Shown piece by piece: positions 5,672 to 60,161 of a stretch of 64,000 nucleotides of DNA. A program made the position numbers and the translations under genes. The notes below the pieces were generated by a model. That model ran no database searches and was not told the origin of the DNA. It saw only the letters and a program-made list of their open reading frames with translations. The number at the start of each line of letters is the position of its first letter. Within the stretch, counting starts at the first letter, position 1. Origin of the DNA: Candidatus Uhrbacteria bacterium RIFOXYB12_FULL_58_10 (lineage in GTDB: Bacteria; Patescibacteriota; Patescibacteriia; UBA9934; GWF2-40-263); NCBI GenBank assembly GCA_943354165.1, contig CALRBH010000005.1, forward strand, positions 18-64,017. Direction: 5' to 3'.

Positions 5672-5700
5672 AGGTACACAGGAAGTATACCAAAGGACGG

Positions 5701-5780
5701 AGTTAGTAGTAAGTAGATAGTAGTTAGTAGAGCTGACGGTGGAAACCCTACTACCTACTTACTACTATCTACTAACTAAG
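5701..5780. repeat. TAGTAG-family stop-codon-rich hairpin, copy T1 (arms of TTAGTAG/TAGATAG units, 17-nt loop)
   Basis: The left arm agttagtagtaagtagatagtagttagtag pairs with the right arm ctactacctacttactactatctactaactaag. Related copies occur at 8250..8326 and 34899..34997, with a half copy at 46400..46432. Confidence 0.85.
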
Positions 5781-6535: not shown

Positions 6536-6544
6536 ACGAAATAT

Positions 6545-6614
6545 ATTGCCTGAGCTTGTCGAAGGCCACGCCGCGACCCTTCGACTTCGGCTGAGGCCTC
6601 CGCTCAGGGAATAA
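6545..6614. repeat. 70-bp palindromic intergenic element, copy A1 (stem gcctgagcttgtcgaagg / ccttcgacttcggctgaggc)
   Basis: Near-identical to 7206..7274. An 18-bp inverted repeat flanks an 11-nt loop, followed by ctccgctcagggaataa. It supplies the TGA stop and the last residues (..IP) of tsaC. Confidence 0.85.
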
Positions 6615-7197
6615 ATAGTGAGCCCTGTCTTAATACTACTAATTTCCCTTCTGAAAAAGCGATAATCGTTGAGGGTTTTCGCTTTGGGAGGCTGCCGGCG
6701 TCGATCAGGGCGTCTGGCTGGATCTTCGCATCTTTGAAGGCTTTTTGCACGGCTCGGGCGCTGTAACAGGCGGGTTCGCCGGATTGATTCGCGGAGGTGG
6801 AGACGATCGGGGCCGCGAGCGCTTTCGAGAGAGCCTGGGCGATAGGATGAGCAGAAACACGTAACGCGATCGTTCCGTCGGCTGCGACGACTTGAGGCGC
6901 GAGCTTCGCCTTCGATTGTTTTGGAAGCACCATCGTAAACGGACCTGGCCAGTGTGCGCGAGCTAACTTCGACGCTTCGATGGGAAAGGTCGCCCACTTC
7001 TTCGCCATCGCCGTCGTCGAGACGATCAACGGGACGGTTTTTTCCGGAGCGCGGCCTTTGATCGAAAAAACTTTCTCGACCGCCGACGCATTTCGGGCGT
7101 CCGCGGCGAGTCCATAACTCGTCTCGGTCGGGAATACGACAACTCCGCCCTCTCGAAGGATGCGGATCGCCTCTTTTGTCGAAACGACAGGAATCAT
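6604..7197 (-). CDS. tsaC: L-threonylcarbamoyladenylate synthase (TsaC/YrdC/Sua5 family)
   Basis: The 197-aa protein carries YrdC-like motifs (VVFPTETSYGLAADA, PIVSTSANQSGEP). Confidence 0.85.
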   Translation of the reverse strand: MIPVVSTKEAIRILREGGVVVFPTETSYGLAADARNASAVEKVFSIKGRAPEKTVPLIVSTTAMAKKWATFPIEASKLARAHWPGPFTMVLPKQSKAKLAPQVVAADGTIALRVSAHPIAQALSKALAAPIVSTSANQSGEPACYSARAVQKAFKDAKIQPDALIDAGSLPKRKPSTIIAFSEGKLVVLRQGSLFIP

Positions 7198-7205
7198 AAA
7201 CCATT

Positions 7206-7274
7206 ATTGCCTGAGCTCGTCGAAGGCTCGCAGCGCCCCTTCGACTGCGGCTGAGGCCTCCGCTCAGGGAATAA
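7206..7274. repeat. 70-bp palindromic intergenic element, copy A2
   Basis: About 90% identical to copy A1, with the same hairpin. It supplies the TGA stop and the C-terminal ..LIP of the epimerase gene. Confidence 0.85.
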
Positions 7275-8247
7275 GAGATTTCAATGTCTTTCGGAGCCCC
7301 TCCTCAAGACTCATTTCTGCTTTCCACCCAAGTTCCTTCATGGCCTTCTTGGAGACCAAGGCACTACGGCGAACTTCACCTGCTTTCGCCGGACCAAACT
7401 GCATCGTGCTGCCACGTACAGCTCGTACCTCCCCTGACCCCTCCTTCGTAAGGAGGGGGGCTGAGGCCGCGGTGAGTCGATTCATCATTTTGAAAAGTTT
7501 CAACACGCTTGTCTCCTGTCCTGTGCCGATGTGATAGATCCCGTGAGCATTCTTGCCCATCGCAAGGACGTTGGCGCGCACGACATCGCCGACGTAGACG
7601 AAATCGCGCGTCTGCTTGCCGTCGCCATTGATGATGATGTCCTCATTCGCAAGCAAATGGCTGCCGAACAGTGCCACCACACCCGCTTCGCCTTTTGTAT
7701 TCTGACGCGGGCCGTACACATTCGCGTAGCGCAAAGAAACCGTGTCGATGCCGTACGTCGATGAGGCAAATTCGAGGTACATCTCCCCTGCCCGCTTGGA
7801 AATTCCGTAGGGGGAGACTGGTTCGGCTGGCTGGGACTCGCTATAGGGCGGACGGACACGATCAGAAAACATCGCCCCACCTGATGAGGAGAAAACGATC
7901 TTCTTCACACCGGCTTCGGCCGCGTGCTGAATGAGCGCGAGTGTGCCGAGCACGTTTACTTTGGCATCCGTGACAGGATCGACGACCGACGAACGAACAT
8001 TCACCTGCGCAGCCGTGTGGAAAACAATGTCAGGCTGAATCTTTTTAAGCAGTGCCGGAAACGCCGGGCTGGTAATCGACATTTTGACGAACTCCGCATT
8101 CGGATTCACGTTTTTCTTGTCCCCGGTCGTCAGGTCATCGATGACATACGTCTTAATCCGGCGCTTGATGAGAGCGTCGGCAATATGGGAGCCGATGAAT
8201 CCGGCTCCGCCGGTGACGAGGGCGCGTTTGTAGGGCATAAGGCTCAT
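7264..8247 (-). CDS. NAD-dependent epimerase/dehydratase (UDP-glucose 4-epimerase-like, SDR family)
   Basis: The protein has TGGAGFIGSH, a YxxxK site (YGISK) and NVYGPRQ. Its C-terminal region contains the in-frame P-family repeat at 7438..7460. Confidence 0.85.
   Translation of the reverse strand: MSLMPYKRALVTGGAGFIGSHIADALIKRRIKTYVIDDLTTGDKKNVNPNAEFVKMSITSPAFPALLKKIQPDIVFHTAAQVNVRSSVVDPVTDAKVNVLGTLALIQHAAEAGVKKIVFSSSGGAMFSDRVRPPYSESQPAEPVSPYGISKRAGEMYLEFASSTYGIDTVSLRYANVYGPRQNTKGEAGVVALFGSHLLANEDIIINGDGKQTRDFVYVGDVVRANVLAMGKNAHGIYHIGTGQETSVLKLFKMMNRLTAASAPLLTKEGSGEVRAVRGSTMQFGPAKAGEVRRSALVSKKAMKELGWKAEMSLEEGLRKTLKSLIP
7438..7460. repeat. CCCCTCCTTCG-TAAGGAGGGG hairpin (P family) embedded in-frame in the epimerase CDS
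   Basis: The same hairpin core occurs at 12599..12620 (in-frame in the O-antigen ligase) and at 25231..25252 (intergenic). Here it encodes ..PLLTKEG.. Confidence 0.75.
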
Positions 8248-8249
8248 GA

Positions 8250-8326
8250 GTTAGTAGTAAGTAGATAGTAGTTAGTAGGGTTGAATGACGGAAAACTACT
8301 ATCTACTTACTACTATCTACTATCTA
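8250..8326. repeat. TAGTAG-family hairpin, copy T2
   Basis: The arm gttagtagtaagtagatagtagttagtag pairs with ctactatctacttactactatctactatcta. It lies between the epimerase start and the prfB stop and provides the prfB TAG stop. Confidence 0.85.
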
Positions 8327-9772: not shown

Positions 9773-11742
<1,970 letters not shown>

Positions 11743-11748
11743 AAGATA

Positions 11749-11864
11749 GGGTTGTAAGGGTTGTAATGGACTGTTAGGGGCGAAAGGTCGCTAGGAAAGC
11801 ACGGACGGTCGGGAAAACCCCTTACCACCCTTACTGCCCTTACAGCCCTTACAGCCCTTACCGC
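11749..11864. repeat. GTAAGGG-family hairpin (G family) upstream of groES
   Basis: The forward arm gggttgtaagggttgtaatggactgttagggg is complemented by ccccttaccacccttactgcccttacagcccttacagcccttacc. Confidence 0.8.
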
Positions 11865-11884
11865 CCACGGAATGTCGCTAGATA

Positions 11885-11911
11885 TTAGCAGTCATCAGTT
11901 TAGATTGCTAG
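11885..11911. promoter_or_regulatory. CIRCE-like inverted repeat (putative HrcA operator) about 145 nt upstream of groES
   Basis: TTAGCAGTC-N9-GATTGCTAG has 3 mismatches from the consensus TTAGCACTC-N9-GAGTGCTAA. It overlaps the 3' end of the upstream ligase gene. Confidence 0.4.
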
Positions 11912-13253
11912 CGGCGATATTTTTATCGGTTTTTATTGACTTGTCAAGACAAATCCCACACACAATCGCTGCGAGGGCGAGCCCGCTCCAGAGGCTCCAG
12001 AGGTAATGATCAAACAGGGCAAGGACGATGAGGCAGGCGATCAACGAGGCGGCCATGATGCCGTCGCGCGTAAATAATCGAGGACGGAGCGAGCGCCACA
12101 GTTCCCTTCCCGCTAGGAGAAAGAAGAGGGAGGCGAGAAGACCGCCTTCGGCGAGGAACAGGAGGAAGGCGTTGTGGACTGGCTGGTAGGCGTAGGACGG
12201 GAATCCGGGGCGAAGTGCGGCGAGCTTCGAAGTGAATTGTGAGGTCCCGGTTCCAAGGATCGGACTCGACATGAACACCTCTGGAAATTGGGCGAGGGCG
12301 GCGTAGCGTTCTGCGATCGAACGTTCTTCCAGCCGCGCGGTCGGAATGGCGCGCGTAAGGACTTCCGTTCGGAAGACGATGAGAGTCAGGAGGATGGCGC
12401 AGCCGGCGATGCCGGCGACCGGAAGCGCGCGGCGTGGAAGTTCACGACGGGACCAGAGCAAGAGGATGCCGACGGTTCCGGTTCCAGCCGCCACCGCGAG
12501 CCAGGCGCTGCGGGAAAAGGTGAGGATCAGGGTCGCGGAAAAGATCGCGAGAGCTAAACGCGTCGCGGGCTGATGCCATGAACGGCAACCGCCCCTAACC
12601 CCTCCTTGGCGAAGGAGGGGAATCGCGCTTAGTTCCCAAATGCAAAGCAGGATACCAACTGCCAAATAGCCACCAAACACGTTTGGATGCGGGAATGAAC
12701 CATACGCACGCAGCGTGCGGATGCCTCCGGCGGATTCCACGACGGATGCGCCGAGTTCTGGCGCGTTGTGCGCGGAAAGGCCGAGCCAATGACTGGCGGG
12801 ACTATCGCCCATGAAGGTCTGAATTATCCCGAAGAGACTCACGGGCACGAGTCCGGCAATGAAGGCGTGGCGTGCCATCGAGACATCGGTTCGCTCATCG
12901 GTGATGAGGAGAGCGAGTGCCGCGGCCGCAGCAACATGGAAGAGATGCGAGAGGGCGAGGAGCGGATCTGCGCTCACGAATGAACTCGCGAGCAGGGCAA
13001 GAGCACAGAGTTTTGCCCAGCGGAAAAGTAGTTGGTAGGTGGTAGTTGGTAGTTGGGGTTTTCCGCGTGCAACAAGAAGAGCGAGTGCGAGGAGTTCGGT
13101 TGCGTACAACAGGGTTTTTCCGTACTCCCATCCCCCGCCATCAAGCGTTCTCTCCATCACGATCCACACCATCTGCCACGGCAACAGGAAAAGCAGCGCG
13201 TACAGGCCGTTGGTTACGAGGCGATCTTTGTTCATACGCCGTGAATTCGACAT
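11895..13253 (-). CDS. O-antigen ligase / O-antigen polymerase family membrane protein (Wzy_C domain)
   Basis: It is a multi-TM protein with the motif TFSRSAWLAVAAG characteristic of the WaaL/Wzy_C family. It contains an in-frame P-family hairpin at 12599..12620 encoding PLLRQGG. Confidence 0.7.
   Translation of the reverse strand: MSNSRRMNKDRLVTNGLYALLFLLPWQMVWIVMERTLDGGGWEYGKTLLYATELLALALLVARGKPQLPTTTYQLLFRWAKLCALALLASSFVSADPLLALSHLFHVAAAAALALLITDERTDVSMARHAFIAGLVPVSLFGIIQTFMGDSPASHWLGLSAHNAPELGASVVESAGGIRTLRAYGSFPHPNVFGGYLAVGILLCIWELSAIPLLRQGGVRGGCRSWHQPATRLALAIFSATLILTFSRSAWLAVAAGTGTVGILLLWSRRELPRRALPVAGIAGCAILLTLIVFRTEVLTRAIPTARLEERSIAERYAALAQFPEVFMSSPILGTGTSQFTSKLAALRPGFPSYAYQPVHNAFLLFLAEGGLLASLFFLLAGRELWRSLRPRLFTRDGIMAASLIACLIVLALFDHYLWSLWSGLALAAIVCGICLDKSIKTDKNIAASNLN
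12599..12620. repeat. P-family hairpin (cccctccttggcgaaggagggg) in-frame within the O-antigen ligase CDS
   Basis: A perfect 9-bp stem with a 4-nt loop. It is the same core as at 7438 and 25231. Confidence 0.75.
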
Positions 13254-17298: not shown

Positions 17299-17375
17299 TG
17301 GTGGACGCTGGGGGATTCGAACCCTCGACCTACTCGGTGTAAACGAGCCGCTCTAACCAGCTGAGCTAAGCGTCC
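17299..17375 (-). tRNA. tRNA-Val (anticodon TAC), CCA encoded
   Basis: The reverse complement GGACGCTTAGCTCAGCTGGTTAGAGCGGCTCGTTTACACCGAGTAGGTCGAGGGTTCGAATCCCCCAGCGTCCACCA forms a cloverleaf with a 7-bp acceptor stem, the anticodon loop TTTACAC and a TTCGAAT T-loop. There is one A:C mismatch in the T-stem. Confidence 0.9.
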
Positions 17376-17630
17376 ATAATTTTCAACTAACCAGGTCCGA
17401 CGCCCTGATGGGGTACGGACCCCCGACCGCATCAGCGCGTCGGGGCTGAGCTAAGCGTCCATAATTTTCAACTAACCAGGTCCGACGCCCTGATGGGGTA
17501 CGGACCCCCGACCGCATCAGCGCGTCGGGGCTGAGCTAAGCGTCCATAATTTTCAACTAACCAGGTCCGACGCCCTGATGGGGTACGGACCCCCGACCGC
17601 ATCAGCGCGTCGGGGCTGAGCTAAGCGTCC
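17376..17630. repeat. Three perfect tandem 85-bp units immediately 5' of tRNA-Val(TAC). In tRNA orientation each unit is the tRNA 5' 15 nt (GGACGCTTAGCTCAG), then a 51-nt GC-rich hairpin insert, then TGGTTAG and 11 nt.
   Basis: The period is 85 (units start at 17376, 17461 and 17546), and every unit ends with gctgagctaagcgtcc, identical to tRNA positions 1-16. The insert has inverted repeats (CCGACGC/GCGTCGG and CTGATG/CATCAG). A related single element lies 5' of tRNA-Ile at 34528..34620. Confidence 0.9.
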
Positions 17631-17640
17631 ATAATTGCTA

Positions 17641-23468: not shown

Positions 23469-25178
23469 TTACATTTCCATTGCTGGCTTGATGCCGAGGA
23501 GCGCAAGACCGTTTTCGAGCACCTGCTGCACGGCCTTCACCGTCGCGAGGCGCGCCATGCGCTCTTCCCCTTCACTCGAGGCGACGGGAACGGCTTCGTA
23601 GTAGGAACTGAAGGTCTGGGCGAGGTCGAAGAGGTACTGGGCGATGAGACTTGGCTTCAACTCGGCTCCCGCGGCCGCTACGGCTTCAGGATAAGAGGCC
23701 AGCGCAAGCAGCAACCGATGCTCCAGTGGATGTGTGAACCTCAATCCCTTACCACCTTTACCGCCCTTACCACCTTTACCCGCCTTCTTGAGCACACTCG
23801 TTGCGCGGGCGAACATATAGAGGAGGTATGGGCCGGAGAAACCTTCGAACGACATGGCTTCGGCGCGATCAAAGATGATTTTCTTGTCCGGATCCTGCTT
23901 GAGCATCGCGAAGCGGATGGCGGCGAAGGCTACCGACTGCGCCGCGGCGTCGAGTTGCTTCTGGCTCCAGTCCTCATGGCGCTTCTTGGATTCCGCATGC
24001 GCCGCCGCGATCAGCTCATCGCGGAACTCTTCATACCGAATCGCGTTTCCTTTCCGGGAGGACATTGATCCTTCCTTAAGAGTGACGAATTCGTAGGAAA
24101 CGTGTTCCATCTCCTTCTCGAACCCCATCCGCTTGAGGGTCGCAAACAGCTGGCGCATGGCGAGCGTCTGGCGGCCGTCGATCACGAACAGACTGCGCGG
24201 GGCGTGATAGTCATCATCCTTGCGCATCGCGAGGGCGAGGTCCTTGGCGTTGTACAGAAGCGTCCCATCGGACTTCACAAGCAGGTTGGCTCCGAAGCCT
24301 TCATCCTCCAAGTCGACGATCCAAGCTCCTTCACTCATTTTTACGATCCCTTTCTTTTTCAAATCCTCGATGATCTCCTTGGTTTGAGGAATGAGATCGC
24401 TCTCATAATAGGTTTTCTGGATGGTGAGGCCGAGTTCCTTCTGGATGGCCTTAAAGTTCTTGAGCGACCAAGTGCGGGTTTGCTTCCAGAGGCGCACAGC
24501 GGGACCCTTGAGGTCCTCGAGCTCGTGGTGGATGGCGGAAATAGCCTGCTTCACTACTGGATCTGCAGACGCAGCGACCGCTTCCACGTACATGCGCTCA
24601 AGAAACGCGATATCATCCTCGTCCGCGCGGCGCTGGTCCTTGCTGCGCTGGATGGCCCAAAGACAGGCGGCCACGTTCGCGCCCAAATCGTTCACATAGG
24701 ACACGGGAATCACCTCATGACCGAGCGCACGCAGAAGATCAACGACCGCCTGGCCCAAAAAGAAATTTCGAAGGTGACCGACGTGCAATCCTTTGTGCGT
24801 ATTCGGGTTCGCGAACTCGACGAGGACCCGTTTGCCCTGGCCCGAATCGGACGTGCCGAACTTTTTGCCATCGGCGGCAATCTCTCCGAGGATCGCGGTG
24901 CCGAAAGAAGTGTCGTCGAACGTAAAGTTAATGTACGGACCCTTGGCCTCCGCCTTCTTAATGAATCCGTCTGGCGAAATCTTCGGCGCAAGCTCGGAAG
25001 CGATCTCCATGGGGTTCCGGCCCATTCCTTTTGCGAGGACGAAACAGGGAAACGCAATGTCGCCCATTGCTGGGTCTGGTGGGCTCGTGAGGTCTGCCAT
25101 CGTCGGCGCGTATTCCTTGCCGATCGCGGACTTCAACGCGAGCAGGACCTGCTTTTTGGCATCGAGCATGATGGACAT
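23469..25178 (-). CDS. argS: Arginine--tRNA ligase
   Basis: The 569-aa protein has a HIGH-region variant (PNTHKGLHVGHLRN), a KMSK-like motif and a DALR anticodon-binding C-terminus. It contains a GKGGKGGKGGKG insertion encoded by the G-family repeat. Confidence 0.95.
   Translation of the reverse strand: MSIMLDAKKQVLLALKSAIGKEYAPTMADLTSPPDPAMGDIAFPCFVLAKGMGRNPMEIASELAPKISPDGFIKKAEAKGPYINFTFDDTSFGTAILGEIAADGKKFGTSDSGQGKRVLVEFANPNTHKGLHVGHLRNFFLGQAVVDLLRALGHEVIPVSYVNDLGANVAACLWAIQRSKDQRRADEDDIAFLERMYVEAVAASADPVVKQAISAIHHELEDLKGPAVRLWKQTRTWSLKNFKAIQKELGLTIQKTYYESDLIPQTKEIIEDLKKKGIVKMSEGAWIVDLEDEGFGANLLVKSDGTLLYNAKDLALAMRKDDDYHAPRSLFVIDGRQTLAMRQLFATLKRMGFEKEMEHVSYEFVTLKEGSMSSRKGNAIRYEEFRDELIAAAHAESKKRHEDWSQKQLDAAAQSVAFAAIRFAMLKQDPDKKIIFDRAEAMSFEGFSGPYLLYMFARATSVLKKAGKGGKGGKGGKGLRFTHPLEHRLLLALASYPEAVAAAGAELKPSLIAQYLFDLAQTFSSYYEAVPVASSEGEERMARLATVKAVQQVLENGLALLGIKPAMEM
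23746..23784. repeat. GTAAGGG-family repeat embedded in-frame in argS, encoding (GKG)n
   Basis: cccttaccacctttaccgcccttaccacctttacccgcc is the reverse complement of GGTAAGGG/GGTAAAGG units and encodes KKAGKGGKGGKGGKG. Confidence 0.75.
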
Positions 25179-25187
25179 AGGGGTCGG

Positions 25188-25252
25188 AGGGCTGTAAGGG
25201 CGGTAAGGGTCGTAAGGGGCTGAATACGTTCCTCCCCTTCGCCAAGGGGAGG
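25188..25252. repeat. Composite intergenic spacer between argS and tyrS: GTAAGGG units followed by a P-family hairpin (cctcccc ttcgccaa ggggagg)
   Basis: gggctgtaagggcggtaagggtcgtaagggg is followed by cctccccttcgccaaggggagg. Confidence 0.75.
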
Positions 25253-25277
25253 TTGGGAGGGGTTGCCGTCCATGGCA

Positions 25278-26489
25278 TCAGCCTTGTATGACACGAACGA
25301 AGTGCCGCTTTCCTTTCTGGATGACGTTTCCATTTTCCGTCGGGGTGATCGACAAGTCGTAGCCCGAAACGACAACCTCATCGACTTTCACTCCCCCGCC
25401 ATCGATCAAACGGCGAGCTTCGCCGTTGCTTGTGGCGAGGCCGGTGCGGACGAGGGCGTCGATGATGCCGATGGAGCCCAGGATTTTGACCGTTGGGATT
25501 TCGGTTGGCATCGCATGGTCCTGGAAGAGCGCATTGAACGCTTTCTTGGCGGCCTTTGCCTTGGCGCGGCTGTAAAAGAAGGTGACGACTTCCTCGGCGA
25601 GGTGGGCCTTCACATCGCGTGGGTTGGCGCCGGTCGCAAGTTCGTCTTTGATGGCCGCGAGTTCGATCGCTGGGATCTCCGTGAGCAATTCGAAGCCTGG
25701 TTCGATCATGCCATCAGTCCAGCTCATCACCTTGCCGAACATTTCGTCTGGCGAATCCGCAAGCGTGATCATGTTCCCTTCGCTCTTCCCCATCTTCTTG
25801 CCGGTATTGTCGACGAGAAGCTTCGTGGTGAGGACGAATTTCTCCTTGTGCTTGATTTCCTTCATGAGCGTGCGGCCGGCAAGCATGTTGAACGTCTGAT
25901 CGTTCCCGCCGATTTCCCCATCGACATCCATAGCGACAGAATCGTAGCCCTGCATGAGGGGATAGAGGAATTCGTGGAGGTGGACTGGCTTTCCTTCTGC
26001 GACGCGCTTCTCAAACATGTCGCGTTCGAGCATTTGCTGGACGGTGTAATGCGAAGCGAGTTCGACGACGTTGCTGAACGACATCTTGCCGAGCCACTTA
26101 GAGTTGTACTTAAGCTCGGCCTTGTTCTCGCCGGAGAATTTAAGGATCTTCGATGCCTGCTTCTTGTAGTTCTTGGCATTCTCGAGAACCTGTTCGCGAG
26201 TGAGACGGACGCGAGTTGCCGACTTGTCGGTAGGATCGCCAATCATGGCGGTGAAATCGCCGATGAGGAGGATGATCTTGTGGCCGAGGTCCTGGAGCTC
26301 GCGCAGTTTCATGAGGACGATGGCGTTCCCCAAGTGGAGCGATGGGCCGGTTGGGTCGATGCCAAGGTAGATGGTGAGTTGTTTCCCTTCTACGAGGCGG
26401 GCGCGAACGAAATCGCGCGATGGGTACACGTTTTCCACTCCTCGAGTGAGGAGGGCGTCGATTTTGTGGGCGTCAGTAATAACGTTCAT
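25278..26489 (-). CDS. tyrS: Tyrosine--tRNA ligase
   Basis: It has HLGN (a HIGH variant), KMGKS and a C-terminal S4-like domain. The start is at MNVITDAHK, the internal Met of the longer ORF. Confidence 0.93.
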   Translation of the reverse strand: MNVITDAHKIDALLTRGVENVYPSRDFVRARLVEGKQLTIYLGIDPTGPSLHLGNAIVLMKLRELQDLGHKIILLIGDFTAMIGDPTDKSATRVRLTREQVLENAKNYKKQASKILKFSGENKAELKYNSKWLGKMSFSNVVELASHYTVQQMLERDMFEKRVAEGKPVHLHEFLYPLMQGYDSVAMDVDGEIGGNDQTFNMLAGRTLMKEIKHKEKFVLTTKLLVDNTGKKMGKSEGNMITLADSPDEMFGKVMSWTDGMIEPGFELLTEIPAIELAAIKDELATGANPRDVKAHLAEEVVTFFYSRAKAKAAKKAFNALFQDHAMPTEIPTVKILGSIGIIDALVRTGLATSNGEARRLIDGGGVKVDEVVVSGYDLSITPTENGNVIQKGKRHFVRVIQG

Positions 26490-26519
26490 ATCCCGCGCAT
26501 CGTAGCGGAAATGACTGAT

Positions 26520-26557
26520 TTTCGCAAAAATCAAACGACCCCGTTGTGGGGTCGTTT
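26520..26557 (-). terminator. Rho-independent terminator downstream of valS
   Basis: The hairpin aaacgacccc-gttgt-ggggtcgttt is followed on the minus strand by gatttttgcg. Confidence 0.65.
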
Positions 26558-26568
26558 ATTGCAGGTTA

Positions 26569-29229
26569 TTACAGGGCTTTGAGCTGAACCTCTAAGGCCG
26601 ACAGCTTCAACTGCGCCTCTGCGAGCTTCGCCCGCATCTCGGCGACCACCTTCTCCGGCGCCTTACCAACGAATTCCTTGTTAGTAAGCTTGGCTTCCGT
26701 ACCATCAATGTACTTACGAGCCGAAGCGATCTCGCCTTCGATGCGCGTGCGTTCCTTCGCCATGTCTACGAGACCGGCGAGGGGGATATGTATCGTGAAT
26801 CCGGTACCGACGGCGGACATGCTTCCCTCTGGCTTAGCGGCATCAGCCGCAATCGTCAGTTCGCCCACACGCGCCAATCGACGAATCAGCGATGCGTTCG
26901 CTTCGAGAAGTTCCGCCTGCGCACCCGCCGAAATCACCGCGACAATTTCCTTGGCTGGTTCCACCTTGTAGTCGGCACGCATCGCACGAATCGACGTAAT
27001 GACGCTTCGGACGGTTTCGAACTGCGCTTCGGCCTCTTCGTCGCGCGCGCCCGAACTTGTCGGATAAGGTTCGATGATGAGCATGCCCTTCTCACCCATT
27101 TCCTTCCAGATCGTCTCCGTCACAAACGGCATGAACGGATGCCAGAGGCGAATGATTCCATTGAGAATGAACCGAAGGTTCGCGTCGGTCGATACGAGAA
27201 GCGTCGCGTCCGTACGCTGGATCTTTGCGATCTCGAGATACCAGTCGGCGAACTCACTCCAGGTGAATTCACGCAAAGTTTCTCCGGCGGCAGAGTAATC
27301 CTTGTTCTCAAGGAATCGAACGGTTTTGCTAACAGTTTCCTCGAATCGGGACATGATCCACCGATCAGCCAAGGTCGTTCCTGTGGCCTCCGGCCTAACG
27401 CCTAACGCCTGTGCCCCAACTGTCGTCAGCACGAACCGGGAAATGTTCCAAAGCTTGTTCGTAAAGTTCCGCAAGCCGGCAACCTTCTCCTCAGAGAGCT
27501 TCACGTCGTTCCCCGCCGTCGAACCGATCACGAGCGAGAGACGCGTGGCGTCCGCTCCGTACTTCGCGATCATGTCGAGCGGGTTGATGATGTTGCCGAG
27601 GGACTTCGACATCTTCCTTCCCTGCTCATCACGCACGAGGCCGTGCAAGTAAACTTCCTTGAACGGAACTTCACCGAGAAGATAAGTCGTCATGCTCACC
27701 ATGCGCACGACCCAGAAGGTCAGAATGTCGTAACCTGTTTCGAGAACGCTCGTCGGATGGAATGTCTTGAGATCGTTCGTCTTCTCAGGCCAACCCAATG
27801 TCGAAAACGTCCAAAGTCCGGAGCTGAACCAGGTATCGAGGGTGTCTTCATCCTGAACCCACCCATCTCCCTCAGGAGCCGATGTGCCGACAAAAGTTTC
27901 CTCCCCGACCTCCCGGACCTCCCCAACCTTCCCAACCTTTCGGTACCAGACAGGAACGCGATGTCCGAACCAAATCTGGCGGCTGATACACCAGTCGCGG
28001 AGATTATCGACCCATTGGAAGTAGGCCTTCTCGAATCGCTCTGGGGTGATCTTCACCTTGCCGGAACGAACGGCGTCCTGGGTCAAAGTTTTCAACGTCG
28101 CCTTCTTGCCATCGCGATCAAATTCCTTGGAAGCACTGATAAACCACTGCAATTTAGGCAAAGGTTCGACGGTTCCGCCCGAACGTTCGGCGGTCGCCAA
28201 GTTCTGAATCGTCTTTTCCTCTGCTTCGATGAGACCTTGCTCCTTCAACCATGAAGCGACGATTTCGCGGGCTTCTTTCGTTGTCTTGCCAGCGACGAGT
28301 GGTCCGGCCACCTCGTTCATCCGTCCGTCTTCACCAATCACCTGCTTCAAGGTGAGTCCGTGACGATCTGCGATATCGGCGTCGATCAAACTATGTGCAG
28401 GCGTAACACCAAGCGCACCGGTTCCGAACTCTGGATCGACGGAATCGTCGGCGACGACCTTAATGGAAATCGTCGTGCCAGCGAATGGGATGTTTCCGAA
28501 TGTCATCCCGACGAACTGCTTGTAACGAGCGTCCTTTGGGTTCACGGCCACGGCCATGTCCCCTACTTTGGTCTCCGGGCGCGTCGTGGAAATGGCGATC
28601 GGGAAGTCCTTGCTGTACTTGAACGTATAAAGCGTCGCCTCCACTTCCTTATAGATAATTTCGATGTCTGAAATGGTCGTCTGTCCAAGCGGATCCCAGT
28701 TAATGACGCGATAGCCGCGATAAATAAGGCCGTCGTCGTACATCTTTTTGAAGGCGACATTCACGGTATGATTGCGCTCTGCGTCGAGCGTGTAGGCCTC
28801 GCGACTCCAATCGAGCGAGCTCCCCATCTTCTTGCACTGGTTCACGATAGTATCGTGGCTCTCCTGGGCGAACTTGTTCACCTCATCCAAAAACTTCTCT
28901 CGGCCAAGCGTGTGGCGAGGAGATTTCATGCCGCCCTCGATCAAAAGCTTCTCGACTTTCGACTGAGTTGCAATCGCGGCGTGGTCTGTACCAGGAATCC
29001 AGAGCGCCTTCTTGCCGCGCATGCGCTCAAAACGGACCATGAGGTCCTGGATGGCGAGCATAGTGGCGTGGCCCATGTGGAGCGTGCCGGTCACGTTCGG
29101 TGGAGGCAGAACCATGGAGAACGGTTCTTTGCGTTCGCCTGGAAGATTGTCGGGGTTGAAGAATCCACTCTGTTCCCAGTCCTTATAGACCTGGTCTTCG
29201 TGGGCTCCTGGCTCGTAGGCTTTTGGCAT
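26569..29229 (-). CDS. valS: Valine--tRNA ligase
   Basis: MPKAYEPGAHE.. aligns with ValRS N-termini, and a HIGH-like motif (PPNVTGTLHMGHA), KMSKS and a C-terminal coiled coil are present. A W-family repeat is inserted in-frame at 27901..27943. The ORF extends upstream to 29388 through another W-family copy. Confidence 0.95.
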   Translation of the reverse strand: MPKAYEPGAHEDQVYKDWEQSGFFNPDNLPGERKEPFSMVLPPPNVTGTLHMGHATMLAIQDLMVRFERMRGKKALWIPGTDHAAIATQSKVEKLLIEGGMKSPRHTLGREKFLDEVNKFAQESHDTIVNQCKKMGSSLDWSREAYTLDAERNHTVNVAFKKMYDDGLIYRGYRVINWDPLGQTTISDIEIIYKEVEATLYTFKYSKDFPIAISTTRPETKVGDMAVAVNPKDARYKQFVGMTFGNIPFAGTTISIKVVADDSVDPEFGTGALGVTPAHSLIDADIADRHGLTLKQVIGEDGRMNEVAGPLVAGKTTKEAREIVASWLKEQGLIEAEEKTIQNLATAERSGGTVEPLPKLQWFISASKEFDRDGKKATLKTLTQDAVRSGKVKITPERFEKAYFQWVDNLRDWCISRQIWFGHRVPVWYRKVGKVGEVREVGEETFVGTSAPEGDGWVQDEDTLDTWFSSGLWTFSTLGWPEKTNDLKTFHPTSVLETGYDILTFWVVRMVSMTTYLLGEVPFKEVYLHGLVRDEQGRKMSKSLGNIINPLDMIAKYGADATRLSLVIGSTAGNDVKLSEEKVAGLRNFTNKLWNISRFVLTTVGAQALGVRPEATGTTLADRWIMSRFEETVSKTVRFLENKDYSAAGETLREFTWSEFADWYLEIAKIQRTDATLLVSTDANLRFILNGIIRLWHPFMPFVTETIWKEMGEKGMLIIEPYPTSSGARDEEAEAQFETVRSVITSIRAMRADYKVEPAKEIVAVISAGAQAELLEANASLIRRLARVGELTIAADAAKPEGSMSAVGTGFTIHIPLAGLVDMAKERTRIEGEIASARKYIDGTEAKLTNKEFVGKAPEKVVAEMRAKLAEAQLKLSALEVQLKAL
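27901..27943. repeat. W-family repeat (GGTTGGGGAAGTTTGGGAGGTTCGGAAGG type) inserted in-frame in valS, encoding KVGKVGEVREVGEE
   Basis: The plus strand ctccccgacctcccggacctccccaaccttcccaacctttcgg is the reverse complement of the family consensus. It lies in the conserved ..WYRK^..TFVG.. region. Confidence 0.8.
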
Positions 29230-29244
29230 GTCGGGCATAAGCGA

Positions 29245-29284
29245 GAGGTTTGGAAGGTTGGGGAGGTTCGGAAGGTTTGGAAGG
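29245..29284. repeat. W-family repeat just upstream of the valS start. If translated in the valS frame it would encode LPNLPNLPNL.
   Basis: gaggtttggaaggttggggaggttcggaaggtttggaagg. Confidence 0.8.
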
Positions 29285-29336
29285 ATGAGTTGAATCGGGT
29301 TTACTGTAGGGGAAATTGGGCTGGGGGGCAATATTG

Positions 29337-31253: not shown

Positions 31254-32603
31254 ATGAACGGAGGAGCCGAAGCCGTACGCGAAGCTCTTGGGCGCGATCA
31301 TGCGCTTGGGTTTGCGTTTCAGCTCATGAAGGATTGCTCCGATGCGGAGATATTCCTCGTTGGAGGGTTCGTGCGCGATGCCCTGCTTGGCCATCCGTCC
31401 AAGGATGCGGACTTTGTCGTACGCGGTATCAGCCAGGAAAAGCTCGAGGCTTGGCTCAGTGAGTATGGCGAGGTCGTGTTCGTCGGCCGCGCGTTTGGGG
31501 TCTACAAGTTCAAGCCATCGATCCATCCAGAACACGACGAAATCGACATTGCCCTGCCACGTACAGAGGTGCCGACTCAGGACAGCCTTGGCGGGTACCG
31601 GGATTTTTCGATGAAGTCCGATGCGATGCTTTCCATCGAGGACGATTTGGCTCGCCGGGACTTTACGATCAATGCCATCGCATACAACTTGAAGGACAAC
31701 ACGCTCGTTGATCCGTTTGGCGGACTCAAGGATCTCGAGGCGAAGATCTTACGCACCGTAGGCGAACCGAAGGATCGATTCGCCGAGGATCTTTCCCGTG
31801 TCCTTCGAGGGATCCGGTTCAGCGCCACCTTGGATTTCACGATCGAGGATGCAACCTGGTGGGCGATCAAGGACGCGGCCTCGCATATCAATCGCACGCG
31901 GGAGGTCGATGACAAAACCGTGTTCGTGGTTCCGCGCGAAACCGTGGGAACCGAGCTCGTGAAGGCGATCCATGCGAACCCGCACGCGTCTCTCAAGCAT
32001 CTGCACGACGCCGGGCTCATGCGTGAACTGTTTCCAGAGCTTGAGCACCTGGTGGTTCACTCCTCCTACCTCGACGTCCTCTCAAAGATGCACGCTGATG
32101 CCCCACCGGACGCCGTGTTCGCCGTTTTGCTGCGCGGCATTCCTACGGAACGCGTCGGCGCCCTGCTTCACCAGAGCGGACTCGACGCCCTGCCCCGCAC
32201 ACACCCGCTGCGCCTGCATGCGAACGACATCACTTGGATCGTCGCCACGCTCCAGGACGGACGCCCGGATCCAACGGCGCTCGTCGCCTGCGACTTCGAA
32301 CGCTTCTTCATGAACGAGCGTGCCCCCGCCTACCTCGCCGCCCTCACTGCACAAGGCCACGAGGACGAAGCGCGCCGCGCACGATTGCGAGCTGCAGAAA
32401 TCCGCGCGCGCTGGTGGGCCACGGACGATGAAAAGATCCCGCCGCTGGTCTCAGGAAACGACGCGACGAATCTAGGCCTGGCCCCTGGCCCCGCCGTTCG
32501 TCTGCTCCTCGATGCGATGCGCTCTGCGCAGCTCGAAGGCCAGGTGAAAAATCGCACGGCGGCGCTACACATGATGGAACAATTGATAAAGGAGATGGAA
32601 TAA
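31254..32603 (+). CDS. cca: CCA-adding tRNA nucleotidyltransferase (Pol-beta head domain type, no HD domain)
   Basis: The head motif is GGFVRDALLG..DADFVV, followed by RRDFTINAIAY and a C-terminal tRNA-binding body. Confidence 0.8.
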   Translation: MNGGAEAVREALGRDHALGFAFQLMKDCSDAEIFLVGGFVRDALLGHPSKDADFVVRGISQEKLEAWLSEYGEVVFVGRAFGVYKFKPSIHPEHDEIDIALPRTEVPTQDSLGGYRDFSMKSDAMLSIEDDLARRDFTINAIAYNLKDNTLVDPFGGLKDLEAKILRTVGEPKDRFAEDLSRVLRGIRFSATLDFTIEDATWWAIKDAASHINRTREVDDKTVFVVPRETVGTELVKAIHANPHASLKHLHDAGLMRELFPELEHLVVHSSYLDVLSKMHADAPPDAVFAVLLRGIPTERVGALLHQSGLDALPRTHPLRLHANDITWIVATLQDGRPDPTALVACDFERFFMNERAPAYLAALTAQGHEDEARRARLRAAEIRARWWATDDEKIPPLVSGNDATNLGLAPGPAVRLLLDAMRSAQLEGQVKNRTAALHMMEQLIKEME

Positions 32604-32605
32604 CA

Positions 32606-32634
32606 AAACCCGGTCACTGAGTGACCGGGTTTTG
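32606..32634. terminator. Bidirectional terminator hairpin
   Basis: aaaacccggtcac-tgag-tgaccgggtttt. Confidence 0.7.
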
Positions 32635-32635
32635 T

Positions 32636-34889: not shown

Positions 34890-34898
34890 AGAACAAGA

Positions 34899-34997
34899 GT
34901 TAGTAGATAGTAGTAAGTAGTTAGTAGATAGTAGTAAGTAGTTAGTAGATTTTCCGTCGCACATCCCTACTAACTACTATCTACTAACTACTAACTC
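34899..34997. repeat. TAGTAG-family hairpin, copy T3 (left arm internally duplicated)
   Basis: gttagtagatagtagtaagtagttagtagatagtagtaagtagttagtagat, a loop, then tactaactactatctactaactactaactca. Confidence 0.85.
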
Positions 34998-35006
34998 ACG
35001 CACCCT

Positions 35007-46345: not shown

Positions 46346-46442
46346 TTCGACTCGCTGTTGCTCGCTCATGGTCTTTGACCATCGGAACGAATTTTTCAAA
46401 CTACTAACTACTTACTACAAACTACTAACTGTATTTTTTGCT

Positions 46443-49407: not shown

Positions 49408-49925
49408 GCGGTCCTGGGACGGCCGGACGGCTACGGTGGATCGCAAGATTCGCTGAGGAAAGTCCGAACACCCGTGGCATCGCAAGGTGCTACGCCAAGG
49501 AACGTCGCTAACGGCGACCGGGTATACCTGTGGGATGTAGAGGCGTTGGAGCAATTCACGCTTTTGGATCTCATAATAAGCCTAGGGAAAGTCTCCCCTG
49601 AAGATAGGACGGGGAGTGCGAAACCAGATCGAAAGGTCTGGGGACGTAGCCACAGAGACAATACTGACGGCCTTCGCGCAAGCCAGGCAGCTGCCTGGCA
49701 AGCATGGCCGCTCAAGGTGAAAAGTGAGGTGATGTGTCGCAAGACGCTGCACCTCTCCCTGCATGGTGACATGCAGGCGATGCAAACCCGTTCCGGTGCA
49801 AGAGCAAGTTTGGTAGCTCGCACGAGCCATGCAGCAATGTATGGACCAGAGAGATGGCCGTCTCCTGCGCACCTAACCCGTGCGGAGAAGACAAAATTCG
49901 GCTTACAGGCCGCTCCCAGGACAGC
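49408..49925 (+). ncRNA. rnpB: RNase P RNA (bacterial type A)
   Basis: The P4 strands GAGGAAAGTCCG and ACAAAATTCGGCTTACAGG are conserved, as are ACAGAGACAATAC..GGCC and AAGGTGAAAAGTG, which correspond to E. coli M1 CAACAGAGAGCAAACC and GGTAAGGGTGAAAGGGTG. P1 pairs GTCCTGGGA with TCCCAGGAC. A terminator follows. Confidence 0.85.
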
Positions 49926-51393: not shown

Positions 51394-51395
51394 AA

Positions 51396-51487
51396 GGGCT
51401 GTAAGGATGGTAAGGGCGGTAATGGACTGTAAGGGCGAAAGATCGAACCAACCCCTTACCATCCTTACAACCCTTACAGCCCTCACC
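51396..51487. repeat. GTAAGGG-family hairpin (G family) between wbaP and the GT4 gene
   Basis: gggctgtaaggatggtaagggcggtaatggactgtaagggcg pairs with ccccttaccatccttacaacccttacagccctcacc. Confidence 0.8.
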
Positions 51488-52590: not shown

Positions 52591-53727
52591 GTGAACATTC
52601 TCATAGACATCCGACATCTTGGAGGAGGAACTCCGAGCGGAGTCGGTCAGTACGCGCGCGAACTTTTGCGTGCGCTTCTTCCGCTTGATCCGACCGTTTC
52701 GTACACGTTGCTTTCGACCGGCTTTCGAAAACCAACGCTTCCCTTTTCACTTCCGCTAAACGCAAAACACGTTCACATCCACGCGCCCAACCGGGCGTTG
52801 TTTGCGTCCATGGCGTTGGCATTTCCGAAGCTCGATAAGCTCGTAAAAGGCCGATTCGACGTAGTTTTCGTGCCGAATCTACATGTGACTCCCCTCTCGG
52901 CTGGAATCCCGATGGTCCTCACGATCCACGACGCGAGCTGGCTGGTAAATCCGTCCTGGTTTTCTCCAAAGACAAGGCTCTGGCACAAGATCGTCCGACC
53001 GAAAGTGCTCGTCGATCGCGCAACGCGATTGATCGTTCCGTCTGAAAGCACCGCGCGAGAAGCACAGGCTTTCCTTGGCGCTGACCCGTCGAAAATTCGT
53101 ATAATCCCACACGGCGTGGATCCGATCTTTTCGCCGAAGCCGACGCCACAGGATCACGGCGTGCGATCGCGCTTGAATCTTCCGAAGCGCTTCGCTCTCT
53201 TCCTTGGAACCATCGAAGCGCGTAAAAACGTCGACGGAATCATCGAGGCGGTCCGAATGTACCGCGAGAAGACCGGCGATCGACTCGAACTCGTTCTCGT
53301 GGGATCGAAAGGTTGGGGAAGTTTGGGAGGTTCGGAAGGTTTGGGAGGACGAAAGGATGAGTGGGTTACTCGTCTAGGTTACGTCCCCGACACTGACCGT
53401 CCGGCGCTCTACCGATTCGCGTCCGTGTTTCTTTTTTCATCTCACATGGAAGGGTTCGGCATGCCTGTCCTTGAGGCGATGGCGAGCGGGACGCCGGTCA
53501 TCACCAGTCCGCGCGGTGCGCTCCCGGAAGTTGCCGGTGACGCGGCGATGTATGCAGACCCAATCGACCCGAATCGCATCGAAATGTGCCTTGAGCAATT
53601 CTTCGGTAGCCAAGAGTTACAAGCGAAATTATCGGCGCGTGGATTGGAACGAGCGAAGGGGTTTGATTGGGGAGAGACCGCGCGAAAGACCTTGGAAACA
53701 TTGAGAGAAGCGGCTGGGCACGAATAG
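52591..53727 (+). CDS. Glycosyltransferase family 4 (GT-B), with an in-frame W-family repeat insertion
   Basis: EGFGMPVLEAMASGTPVI is present. The linker LVLVGSKGWGSLGGSEGLGGRKDE is encoded by the repeat at 53311..53348. Confidence 0.85.
   Translation: MNILIDIRHLGGGTPSGVGQYARELLRALLPLDPTVSYTLLSTGFRKPTLPFSLPLNAKHVHIHAPNRALFASMALAFPKLDKLVKGRFDVVFVPNLHVTPLSAGIPMVLTIHDASWLVNPSWFSPKTRLWHKIVRPKVLVDRATRLIVPSESTAREAQAFLGADPSKIRIIPHGVDPIFSPKPTPQDHGVRSRLNLPKRFALFLGTIEARKNVDGIIEAVRMYREKTGDRLELVLVGSKGWGSLGGSEGLGGRKDEWVTRLGYVPDTDRPALYRFASVFLFSSHMEGFGMPVLEAMASGTPVITSPRGALPEVAGDAAMYADPIDPNRIEMCLEQFFGSQELQAKLSARGLERAKGFDWGETARKTLETLREAAGHE
53311..53348. repeat. W-family repeat in-frame within the GT4 gene (encodes GWGSLGGSEGLGG)
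   Basis: ggttggggaagtttgggaggttcggaaggtttgggagg. Confidence 0.8.
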
Positions 53728-54297: not shown

Positions 54298-54346
54298 AAC
54301 CCCAACCTCCCCAACCTTCCGAACTTCCCAAACCTCCCCAACCCCT
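54298..54346. repeat. W-family repeat (reverse orientation), intergenic upstream of the GT4 gene
   Basis: caaccccaacctccccaaccttccgaacttcccaaacctccccaacccc. Confidence 0.8.
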
Positions 54347-54368
54347 CGCGATTTGCTATACTGCCCGT

Positions 54369-60048: not shown

Positions 60049-60054
60049 AAGAAT

Positions 60055-60084
60055 AAAACGACTCCCTCTATGGGAGTCGTTTTA
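60055..60084. terminator. Bidirectional terminator hairpin
   Basis: aaaacgactccc-tcta-tgggagtcgtttt. Confidence 0.7.
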
Positions 60085-60161
60085 TGGTGCACCTGACTCG
60101 ATTCGAACGAGTGACCTCTTCCTTCGGAGGGAAGCGCTCTATCCAGCTGAGCTACAGGTGC
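60085..60161 (-). tRNA. tRNA-Arg (anticodon CCG), CCA encoded
   Basis: The reverse complement is GCACCTGTAGCTCAGCTGGATAGAGCGCTTCCCTCCGAAGGAAGAGGTCACTCGTTCGAATCGAGTCAGGTGCACCA. Confidence 0.9.

Follow-up and report, generated by a model that had tools for sequence, protein, structure and literature searches.

The BoxC or PIT elements of Escherichia coli were reportedly described as intrastrand triplex repeats by Hoyne et al. in 2000. In E. coli, triplex repeats have a history of decades (back to the 1990s) and are strictly intergenic; their origin and spread are unexplained. Here, we analyze three repeats of this kind in a 64,000-nt stretch of DNA from Candidatus Uhrbacteria bacterium RIFOXYB12_FULL_58_10 (the window). 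One copy lies in-frame within an epimerase gene, another lies in-frame within a gene for a membrane protein of the O-antigen ligase family, and the third lies between tyrS and argS.

In Holder et al. 2015 (PMC4666352), the BoxC or PIT elements, which E. coli has in common with other Proteobacteria, are termed TMECO, with the consensus CCCTCNCCC-N3-6-GGGNGAGGG-N3-GGGNGAGGG. This corresponds to lengths of 9, 3–6, 9, 3, and 9 nt, and the second loop is TTA or CCG. The same study reports that TMECO is a class II (purine-motif) intrastrand triplex that is stable in vitro, as seen by circular dichroism and nuclear magnetic resonance. There are 23 copies per E. coli genome, frequently in inverted pairs, and in strain MG1655 they are always intergenic. 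In E. coli, they act neither as promoters nor as terminators. DNA polymerase is blocked by PIT elements, and genome instability or rearrangement is raised locally around TMECO. Purine-motif triplexes do not form in RNA (all from PMC4666352). The architecture that we describe below is this known one (BoxC/PIT/TMECO).

Three triplex-type repeats in the window

An earlier note on this DNA had pointed out a hairpin at each of the three sites. It overlooked that the repeat has a third strand (a mirror repeat) in addition to the hairpin and is of the triplex class described before (PMC4666352). The parts of each copy are:

7438–7458: copy 1 hairpin, CCCCTCCTT-cgt-AAGGAGGGG, with a perfect 9-bp stem
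7426..7458, minus strand: copy 1 core, 33 nt, within the epimerase coding sequence: CCCCTCCTT, loop ACG, AAGGAGGGG, loop TCA, third domain GGGGAGGTA
7408..7425, minus strand: copy 1 tail, 18 nt; core plus tail form a 51-nt (17-aa) insertion, PLLTKEGSGEVRAVRGS, residues 264–280
12599–12620: copy 2 hairpin, CCCCTCCTT-ggcg-AAGGAGGGG, with a perfect 9-bp stem
12587..12620, minus strand: copy 2 core, 34 nt, within the Wzy_C coding sequence from P212: CCCCTCCTT, loop CGCC, AAGGAGGGG, loop TTA, GGGGCGGTT
12568..12586, minus strand: copy 2 tail, 19 nt, GCCGTTCATGGCATCAGCC, in common with copy 3 and translated as CRSWHQP
25231–25252: copy 3 hairpin, CCTCCCCTT-cgcc-AAGGGGAGG, with a perfect 9-bp stem
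25231..25264, plus strand: copy 3 core, 34 nt, intergenic and in the opposite orientation: CCTCCCCTT, loop CGCC, AAGGGGAGG, loop TTG, GGAGGGGTT
25265..25283, plus strand: copy 3 tail, 19 nt, which overlaps the tyrS stop codon (25278–25280, minus strand)

In all three copies, a pyrimidine arm of 9 nt is followed by a loop of 3–4 nt, then by the purine arm that complements it, a second loop of 3 nt, and a G-rich 9-mer. The 3' 9-mer consists of G, T, and A and repeats the purine arm in mirror order rather than complementing it; A or T stands opposite A. The purine arm AAGGAGGGG is followed by a third domain of GGGG(A/T)GGT(T/A), and the purine arm of copy 3, AAGGGGAGG, is followed by GGAGGGGTT. 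A three-way alignment showed that the repeated unit reaches 3' beyond the hairpin, through the 3-nt loop and GGGGAGGTA, GGGGCGGTT, or GGAGGGGTT, and that copies 2 and 3 have 19 nt more in common past the third domain. The G-rich strands of the three copies are 33–34 nt long (for instance, CCCCTCCTTACGAAGGAGGGGTCAGGGGAGGTA).

Relative to copies 1 and 2, copy 3 has two whole triads exchanged in a coordinated fashion, and the changes to the base pairs of the stem are compensatory. So, the earlier claim that the same hairpin occurs at all three sites is correct for copies 1 and 2 and needs amending for copy 3. Also, the first hairpin begins at 7438, as previously given, and ends at 7458 rather than 7460; the extra two nucleotides are G. 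A self-BLAST of the window aligned 12568–12615 to 25283–25236 in the opposite orientation (87.5% identity).

We wrote a simple program to find class II triplexes. It reported three sites in the 64-kb window and no others, with allowed triads at 9/9 positions in copy 1, 8/9 in copy 2, and 9/9 in copy 3. Neither hairpin pattern had any match in 100 dinucleotide-preserving shuffles, and only 17 perfect hairpins with stems of at least 8 bp occur in the 64 kb. The window copies have the features of class II repeats: perfect 9-bp stems, loops of 3, 4, and 4 nt, at most one mismatched triad, and mirror covariation (discussed below). A triplex fold is predicted for these sequences, that is, they should be able to fold in this way. 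Judging by sequence, we consider them to be a new variant of the class II triplex repeats and not TMECO itself, because the architecture is shared but the stem sequence differs. The stems are CCCCTCCTT or CCTCCCCTT instead of CCCTCNCCC, and the copies do not match the strict TMECO consensus.

The 19-nt tail of copies 2 and 3 gave only short matches at the level expected by chance in 240 other loci, which suggests that the tail is local to the source genome. In copy 2, the tail may be part of the element or may be native sequence from a loop of Wzy_C.

The genic copies are lineage-specific insertions

The genes that host or flank the three copies are:

7264..8247, minus strand: NAD-dependent epimerase (GalE-like), 327 aa, host of copy 1 (Pfam PF01370, E = 1.4e-56)
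11895..13253, minus strand: Wzy_C or O-antigen ligase family membrane protein, 452 aa, host of copy 2 (Pfam PF04932)
23469..25178, minus strand: argS, downstream neighbor of copy 3 (Pfam PF00750, PF05746, and PF03485)
25278..26534, minus strand: tyrS, upstream neighbor of copy 3 (Pfam PF00579, E = 1.3e-73)

As the earlier note had it, copies 1 and 2 are in-frame in the epimerase and the Wzy_C protein, and copy 3 is between tyrS and argS. Copy 1 encodes P264-LLTKEG, copy 2 encodes P212-LLRQGG, and the spacer that holds copy 3 is 99 nt long, with both of its flanking genes on the minus strand. When translated, the genic copies give segments of the type PLLxKEGxGEV.

The two genic copies are lineage-specific in-frame insertions that add 11–17 amino acids which are absent from relatives. 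In the epimerase, residues 264–280 are a gap in all 17 of the aligned homologs (55–71% identity). These homologs have 306–350 amino acids (mostly 308–313), versus 327 amino acids here. The inserted residues are also missing from the best solved structure (PDB 4zrm). AlphaFold shows the insert as an unstructured stretch, of low confidence, between a helix and a strand: the predicted local distance difference test (pLDDT) score is 54–56 at residues 261–280, versus 85–97 in the flanks and 87.8 on average overall. In the alignment of Wzy_C to 17 homologs, the orthologs have a gap of 11–12 amino acids at the motif, which is in a variable loop that precedes a TFSRSAW motif. Most of the homologs have 421–430 amino acids, versus 452 here. 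These alignments bear out the earlier suggestion that the segments are specific to this lineage and are not conserved parts of the two protein families.

We consider the epimerase and Wzy_C proteins to be orthologous to those in three Uhrbacteria-like contigs because the gene order is conserved (NusA, YidC, a hypothetical protein, Wzy_C, GroES, GroEL, a MamF-like protein, RF-1, and the epimerase). The triplex motif is absent from the 34.6 kb of syntenic Uhrbacteria DNA. In another lineage, a Wzy_C ortholog (locus L244) has a TMECO-like variant in the same loop, CCCTCTCCT-ttcga-AGGAGAGGG-ccg-GGGTGAGGT, with 9/9 allowed triads.

That locus is a 3-kb contig from a related lineage, and it contains three motifs with three different stems (at 269–301, 519–551, and 1366–1400). 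All three are inside two adjacent called genes, namely, the Wzy_C ortholog and an upstream open reading frame (ORF) that holds two of them.

Two copies lie in ORFs because the core is 33–34 nt, has no stop codon in the frame that is used, and sits in loops that tolerate additional residues. If both of its loops are 3 nt, the core comes to 33 nt, or 11 codons.

The third domain covaries with the stem across many phyla

We searched for the bare hairpin in one genome per species. Among the matches listed, there were at least 120 loci with 149 copies. These were from Bacteroidota, Acidobacteriota, Nitrospirota, large sulfur bacteria, Chlamydiota, and many lineages of the candidate phyla radiation, and the assemblies include isolate genomes. 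Among these same matches, 128 of the 149 copies have a GGGGNGG[T/A] block on one side of the hairpin. In 89 of the 128, the block follows a spacer that is mostly 3 nt; in the other 39, an additional variable GC-rich hairpin is found between the purine arm and the block. An extra hairpin in the second loop fits a linker that folds back.

To see if the window copies belong to this family, we used a covariance model (R1) with 40 positions that was trained on 70 copies, all from other genomes. The model matched copy 1 at all 40 positions (48.8 bits, E = 1e-13, 7423–7462 on the minus strand), copy 2 at all 40 positions (46.8 bits), and copy 3 at full length (19.2 bits, E = 5e-4). The bare hairpins on the opposite strand of copies 1 and 2 scored 21.7–23.5 bits, or about 25 bits below the full motif. 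Elsewhere in the window, R1 had no convincing match.

The third domain covaries with the stem in mirror order. In our test, the flank was never part of the query pattern, and a third domain was counted if it was within 8 nt of the stem. Among the matches listed, the stem AAGGAGGGG is followed by GGGGWGGW in 88 of 149 cases and by GGWGGGGW in none of the 149. For the stem AAGGGGAGG, which we sought by scanning metagenomes, it is the reverse: GGWGGGGW follows in 88/136 cases and GGGGWGGW in 3/136. In viral contigs, the matching third domain was present in 61 of 91 cases and the other type was never present (0/91). Finally, in the loci that we fetched, 166 of the 421 hairpins with other pyrimidine/purine stems are followed by their own mirror, versus 45 on average and 62 at most if the stems are permuted; each palindromic hairpin was entered on both strands, so the highest attainable value is 50%. 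The mirror rule is that of a purine-motif (reverse-Hoogsteen) third strand that runs antiparallel to the hairpin's purine strand. We also considered a G-quadruplex or mimicry of Shine-Dalgarno (SD) and anti-SD sequences for the G-rich flank, and set these aside, because each position of the flank varies with its mirror counterpart in the stem.

In other genomes as well, the motif is found in reading frame, with Pfam matches flanking or spanning it. The hosts are Lgt, MgsA/RarA, a beta-CASP metallo-hydrolase, TsaE, PanE/ApbA (in a metagenome-assembled genome of Chitinophaga), and an Orn/DAP decarboxylase. More in-frame hosts are LipB, IleRS, TsaD, and HolA; in HolA, the motif is in a linker that separates two Pfam domains. 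In Lgt, RarA, LipB, TsaD, IleRS, TsaE, and PanE, it interrupts a Pfam domain. The insert in an Andersenbacteria Lgt, PLLSKEGLGEVRDV, closely resembles the insert in our epimerase. Genic copies elsewhere use other frames and both orientations (for instance, SPSLVRRG and PPPYEGGG), which suggests a DNA element that is tolerated rather than selection for one peptide.

The motif also occurs in other arrangements. Inverted pairs of 86 nt and longer are found in other genomes (e.g., L071). One locus has a head-to-tail tandem array with a 41-nt period (L101 7128–7330), and another has repeated copies that each have a GC hairpin inserted in the second loop (L141 4321–5408). Among the loci are 72 stretches of viral or proviral contigs from IMG/VR that contain the hairpin (L247–L318), and some of these contigs have at least 6 copies in 24–36 kb.

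The motif does not have an Rfam family, by gathering or by E-value thresholds: in the window, only tRNAs and RNase P were above the gathering score, and the motif pairs from elsewhere gave only sub-threshold matches to microRNA-type hairpins, which we consider spurious. Searching the literature for the sequence itself (CCCCTCCTT and similar strings) turned up nothing but unrelated matches, to eukaryotic sequences or primers.

DUF559 endonucleases beside the motif

DUF559 (PF04480), which is a Vsr-like PD-(D/E)XK endonuclease, was the only clearly recognizable family that several loci had in common beside the motif; transposase families do not recur next to the copies in the fetched loci. Using tblastn, we found DUF559 in 13 of 312 loci (~2.2 Mb from three independent collections). 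Every best alignment was within 103 nt of a motif, and one locus (L094) has a second and weaker alignment at 151 nt. In the commonest layout, a motif is followed by a DUF559 gene of ~320 nt and then by an inverted motif, so that the third domains point toward the gene. The two copies often differ in stem type. A viral contig (L251) also has a DUF559 gene between two motif copies. In a DUF559 gene from Patescibacteria, the third domain of the motif ends just 7 nt before the ATG, and the second loop is 36 nt. Furthermore, 22 of the 120 closest DUF559 homologs in the protein database have motif-encoded peptides in the called ORF, versus 0.1% of shuffled sequences.

A BoxC/TMECO element also lies 168 nt downstream of ycjD, the gene for DUF559 in E. 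coli K-12 (L246 3205–3240, or NC_000913.3 1351204–1351239). Given 23 copies per genome, the probability of this adjacency by chance would be a few in a thousand. The TMECO paper does not mention the adjacency in its main text, and in the papers on DUF559 that we looked through we found nothing on repeats.

These observations make DUF559 the best candidate for an enzyme that would spread the motif copies, which is the least certain step of our proposal.

How the repeats might arise and spread

We think it likely that the three sites are dispersed intrastrand-triplex repeats that were inserted in this lineage, fold transiently in single-stranded DNA, and may owe their spread to repair that a nuclease initiates or to gene conversion. 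The G-rich single strand would form a hairpin, and the third domain would occupy its major groove via G*G-C and A/T*A-T reverse-Hoogsteen triads. By analogy with the work in E. coli, this fold would arise transiently and only in single-stranded DNA (during replication, repair, or transcription), and the folded motif would stall polymerases and draw breakage and repair. New copies might then be seeded through nuclease-initiated repair or gene conversion, and the candidate nuclease is DUF559, as it is encoded between two inverted motif copies in other genomes. None of this implies a function for the host cell. The earlier note had proposed a mobile or selfish element that is tolerated in proteins. 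The selfish and tolerated parts of that proposal are supported by the presence of the motif in many phyla and in-frame in unrelated genes; that the element is mobile is something we infer.

More tentatively, a compact selfish element might have the BoxC/PIT/TMECO-class repeats as its ends or as the sites that it recognizes. When autonomous, this element would consist of a motif, DUF559, and an inverted motif (~0.45–0.5 kb in all), and it would move between phyla, partly on phages. Solo 33-nt copies would be seeded by break and repair and would colonize ORFs, as 11 codons that are mostly stop-free. We regard this broader proposal as possible, although we would not yet expect it to hold.

Several observations weigh against these proposals. 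The three-way alignment of the window copies showed neither a target-site duplication nor a clean boundary of the element. If the tail of copy 2 is native to Wzy_C, as it may be, then copy 3 carries host DNA. The nearest epimerase orthologs in the protein database are just 66–71% identical, and we found no empty-site allele from a close relative. Neither a DUF559 gene nor a transposase is present within the 64-kb window. DUF559 is beside the motif in only ~4% of the fetched loci; because the loci were sampled by hairpin sequence, neither this proportion nor the proportion of genic copies is an estimate for the population. Holder et al. reported no mobility genes near TMECO, and the TMECO triplex was not seen by in vivo dimethyl sulfate footprinting or in double-stranded DNA (PMC4666352).

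Some of these points would fit a different account, in which the motifs are not mobile. Instead, they would be fragile sites or landing pads that are copied by templated repair or gene conversion, and the DUF559 genes would be selfish genes that home there. A polymerase that stalls at a folded motif would bring about breaks, and their repair would now and then copy a motif from elsewhere in the genome, at times together with neighboring DNA. Local rearrangement is raised at TMECO loci without a transposase nearby (PMC4666352), target-site duplications were not found for the window copies, the 19 nt beyond the motif that copies 2 and 3 have in common are possibly host sequence, and two different arrangements of DUF559 and the motif exist. 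On the other hand, horizontal spread of a unit is favored by the near-identical motifs of many phyla and viral contigs, and the recurrent pair of inverted copies around DUF559 resembles one element. Overall, we consider fixed fragile sites to be rather unlikely.

A role at the level of RNA seems very unlikely. Here, the repeats would be kept for regulation, as a terminator, a stabilizer of mRNA, a site that sequesters the SD sequence, or a site of ribosome pausing. The stem does pair an SD-like AAGGAGG with an anti-SD-like CCTCCTT on either strand (as RNA, CCUCCUU/AAGGAGG mimics anti-SD/SD), copy 3 is directly after tyrS, and the folding energies are modestly below those of shuffled sequences (z = -2.1 to -3.5). 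However, a U-run is absent after every copy on either strand, copy 3 is ~50 nt from the start of argS, two copies are within ORFs, and the motif has no Rfam match. The motif is also abundant in Bacteroidota, whose translation depends little on SD pairing. A conserved and covarying third domain would have no purpose in a plain RNA hairpin, purine-motif triplexes do not form in RNA, and PIT elements lack promoter or terminator activity in E. coli (PMC4666352). We specifically considered an intrinsic terminator and dropped it, as the T-run is missing after each hairpin on both strands.

The extra residues could also have evolved in situ and truly contribute to the function of the proteins, with the similarity of the DNA being due to composition or to selection for Pro/Leu/Gly peptides. 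Both genic copies do share their orientation and the frame in which they start (PLL...), and another lineage has an insert in the same loop of Wzy_C. We nevertheless find this highly improbable: the residues are missing from all of the orthologs and from the solved structure, AlphaFold gives the epimerase insert low confidence, the intergenic copy has the same nucleotide architecture, in other genomes the motif is translated in different frames and in the reverse orientation (SPSLVRRG and PPPYEGGG), and shuffled sequence gave no matches.

Lastly, it is scarcely credible that the copies are artefacts of assembly or binning: the window is from a metagenome scaffold (MEHR18-3 scaffold_448) that also has a 100%-identical 85-nt tandem repeat, but the 33–53-nt inserts are inside continuous syntenic genes with intact frames, and the architecture recurs in hundreds of independent assemblies, including isolates.

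Implications

These dispersed triplex repeats are a source of protein loop insertions beyond Rickettsia, and in essential genes (a tRNA synthetase, Lgt, LipB, TsaD, RarA, the epimerase, and Wzy). Annotators should note that translated motif copies account for many small "hypothetical" ORFs and for many extensions at N- or C-termini (PLLxKEG, TTPNPSLxRRG, and the like). The adjacency of DUF559, even at ycjD in E. coli, provides the first testable candidate for an enzyme behind the triplex repeats, and the link would hint at what this large family of unknown function does. If the repeats do form a cassette with DUF559, this would be a pan-bacterial counterpart to the Rickettsia palindromic elements (RPEs), with an identifiable enzyme, and conspicuous in bacteria of the candidate phyla radiation.

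Other repeats and structures in the window

The window contains several other repeats. A 9-mer (GTAAGGGNN, or CCCTTACNN on the other strand) forms arrays in intergenic leaders, twice as long inverted arrays, and is also in-frame in argS, where it encodes GKGGKGGKGGKG in a variable linker. We ruled out that this GKG repeat is a net insertion, as ArgS in PDB has a variable linker of similar length there. Heptamer arrays (AGTAGNT / ACTACTN) are intergenic and are mostly inverted pairs, which gives long hairpins with one arm of only A, G, and T and the other of only A, C, and T; they resemble the STRR sequences of cyanobacteria. A third low-complexity family (a ~9-mer, GGTTNGGRA / CCCCAACCT) is intergenic, includes one inverted pair, and has weak partial matches to the G-rich half of the triplex model. 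A 70-nt structured repeat is present in two copies (91.5% identical) that overlap the stop codons of a Sua5-like gene and of the epimerase, so that both proteins end in ...IP*. The 85-nt tandem repeat begins inside a tRNA gene and may be either the scar of an integration or an artefact of assembly. Two perfect hairpins that abut tRNA genes are probably bidirectional terminators. The locations are:

5700–5778, 8248–8322, 34898–34998, and 46398–46430: heptamer arrays
6544–6614 and 7205–7274: 70-nt structured repeat
6604–7197: Sua5-like gene
11416–11449, 11745–11866, 25188–25225, and 51394–51483: 9-mer arrays in intergenic leaders
17299–17375: tRNA-Val(tac)
17360–17636: 85-nt tandem repeat, 3.3 copies, 100% identical
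23746–23786: 9-mer array in-frame in argS
27899–27958, 29241–29298, 53306–53356, 54300–54354, and 56120–56210: third low-complexity family
32603–32635 and 60053–60085: perfect 14–15-bp hairpins, A/T-flanked, abutting tRNA-Val(gac) and tRNA-Arg(ccg)
49415–49922: RNase P RNA match, 508 nt versus a 367-position model, with ~140 nt of extra sequence

Comparison with known repeat systems

Homing endonucleases with the Vsr fold (e.g., I-Bth0305I) are small selfish nucleases that reside in introns or inteins. Like them, DUF559 is a small PD-(D/E)XK or Vsr-like nuclease, and they could be a precedent for the candidate spread of DUF559 via break and repair. Unlike them, DUF559 lies beside motif copies rather than in an intron or intein, and its action on the motif is putative.

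Intragenic miniature inverted-repeat transposable elements (ERIC, Correia, and cyanobacterial; PMC10969869) resemble our repeats in forming in-frame fusions or insertions in ORFs. Our repeats may differ: the solo copies in the window lack terminal inverted repeats, neither a target-site duplication nor a related transposase was found, and inverted pairs of 86 nt and longer occur in other genomes.

Repetitive extragenic palindromic sequences and bacterial interspersed mosaic elements (REP/BIME) are also small GC-rich hairpins that are solo or in inverted pairs and occasionally flank a small gene that presumably mobilizes them. For REP/BIME, this gene is a RAYT (IS200/IS605-like); the gene that our motif flanks is a DUF559 PD-(D/E)XK endonuclease. 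We saw no RAYT gene and no recurring transposase-like family near the copies, although we did not search with a RAYT profile. Also, the conserved GTAG-type head of REP/BIME is absent from the 70-copy alignment, and our repeat has a third, mirror-symmetric domain.

RPEs are ~100–150 bp and are restricted to Rickettsia (summarized in PMC10969869). The analogy to RPEs that the earlier note drew is apt because the family is dispersed over many phyla and is in-frame inside unrelated genes. In both cases, a short structured repeat is intergenic as well as in-frame in unrelated housekeeping genes, and the peptide is absent from orthologs and is in positions that are compatible with the fold. Our repeats have a shorter core of 33–34 nt (51–53 nt with the tail), the insertions measure 33–51 nt, the family is pan-bacterial, and the motif is defined by a mirror-repeat third strand instead of a long palindrome; it is length and architecture, not sequence comparison, that set the two apart.

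The closest relative is TMECO. The order of parts is the same (a 9-nt C-rich arm, a loop, a 9-nt G-rich arm, a 3-nt loop, and a G-rich mirror domain, for a total of 33–37 nt). Copy 2 has the second loop TTA of TMECO type A, and the copy at L244 has the CCG of type B. Both families are dispersed and multi-copy, occur solo or in inverted pairs, and lack a promoter or terminator signature. Unlike TMECO, which is always intergenic in MG1655, two of the three window copies are inside ORFs, and the window copies bear an extra tail of ~19 nt. The host is a bacterium of the candidate phyla radiation, and the family reaches many phyla and viral contigs. And unlike in the reports on TMECO, the motif family is associated with DUF559 genes.

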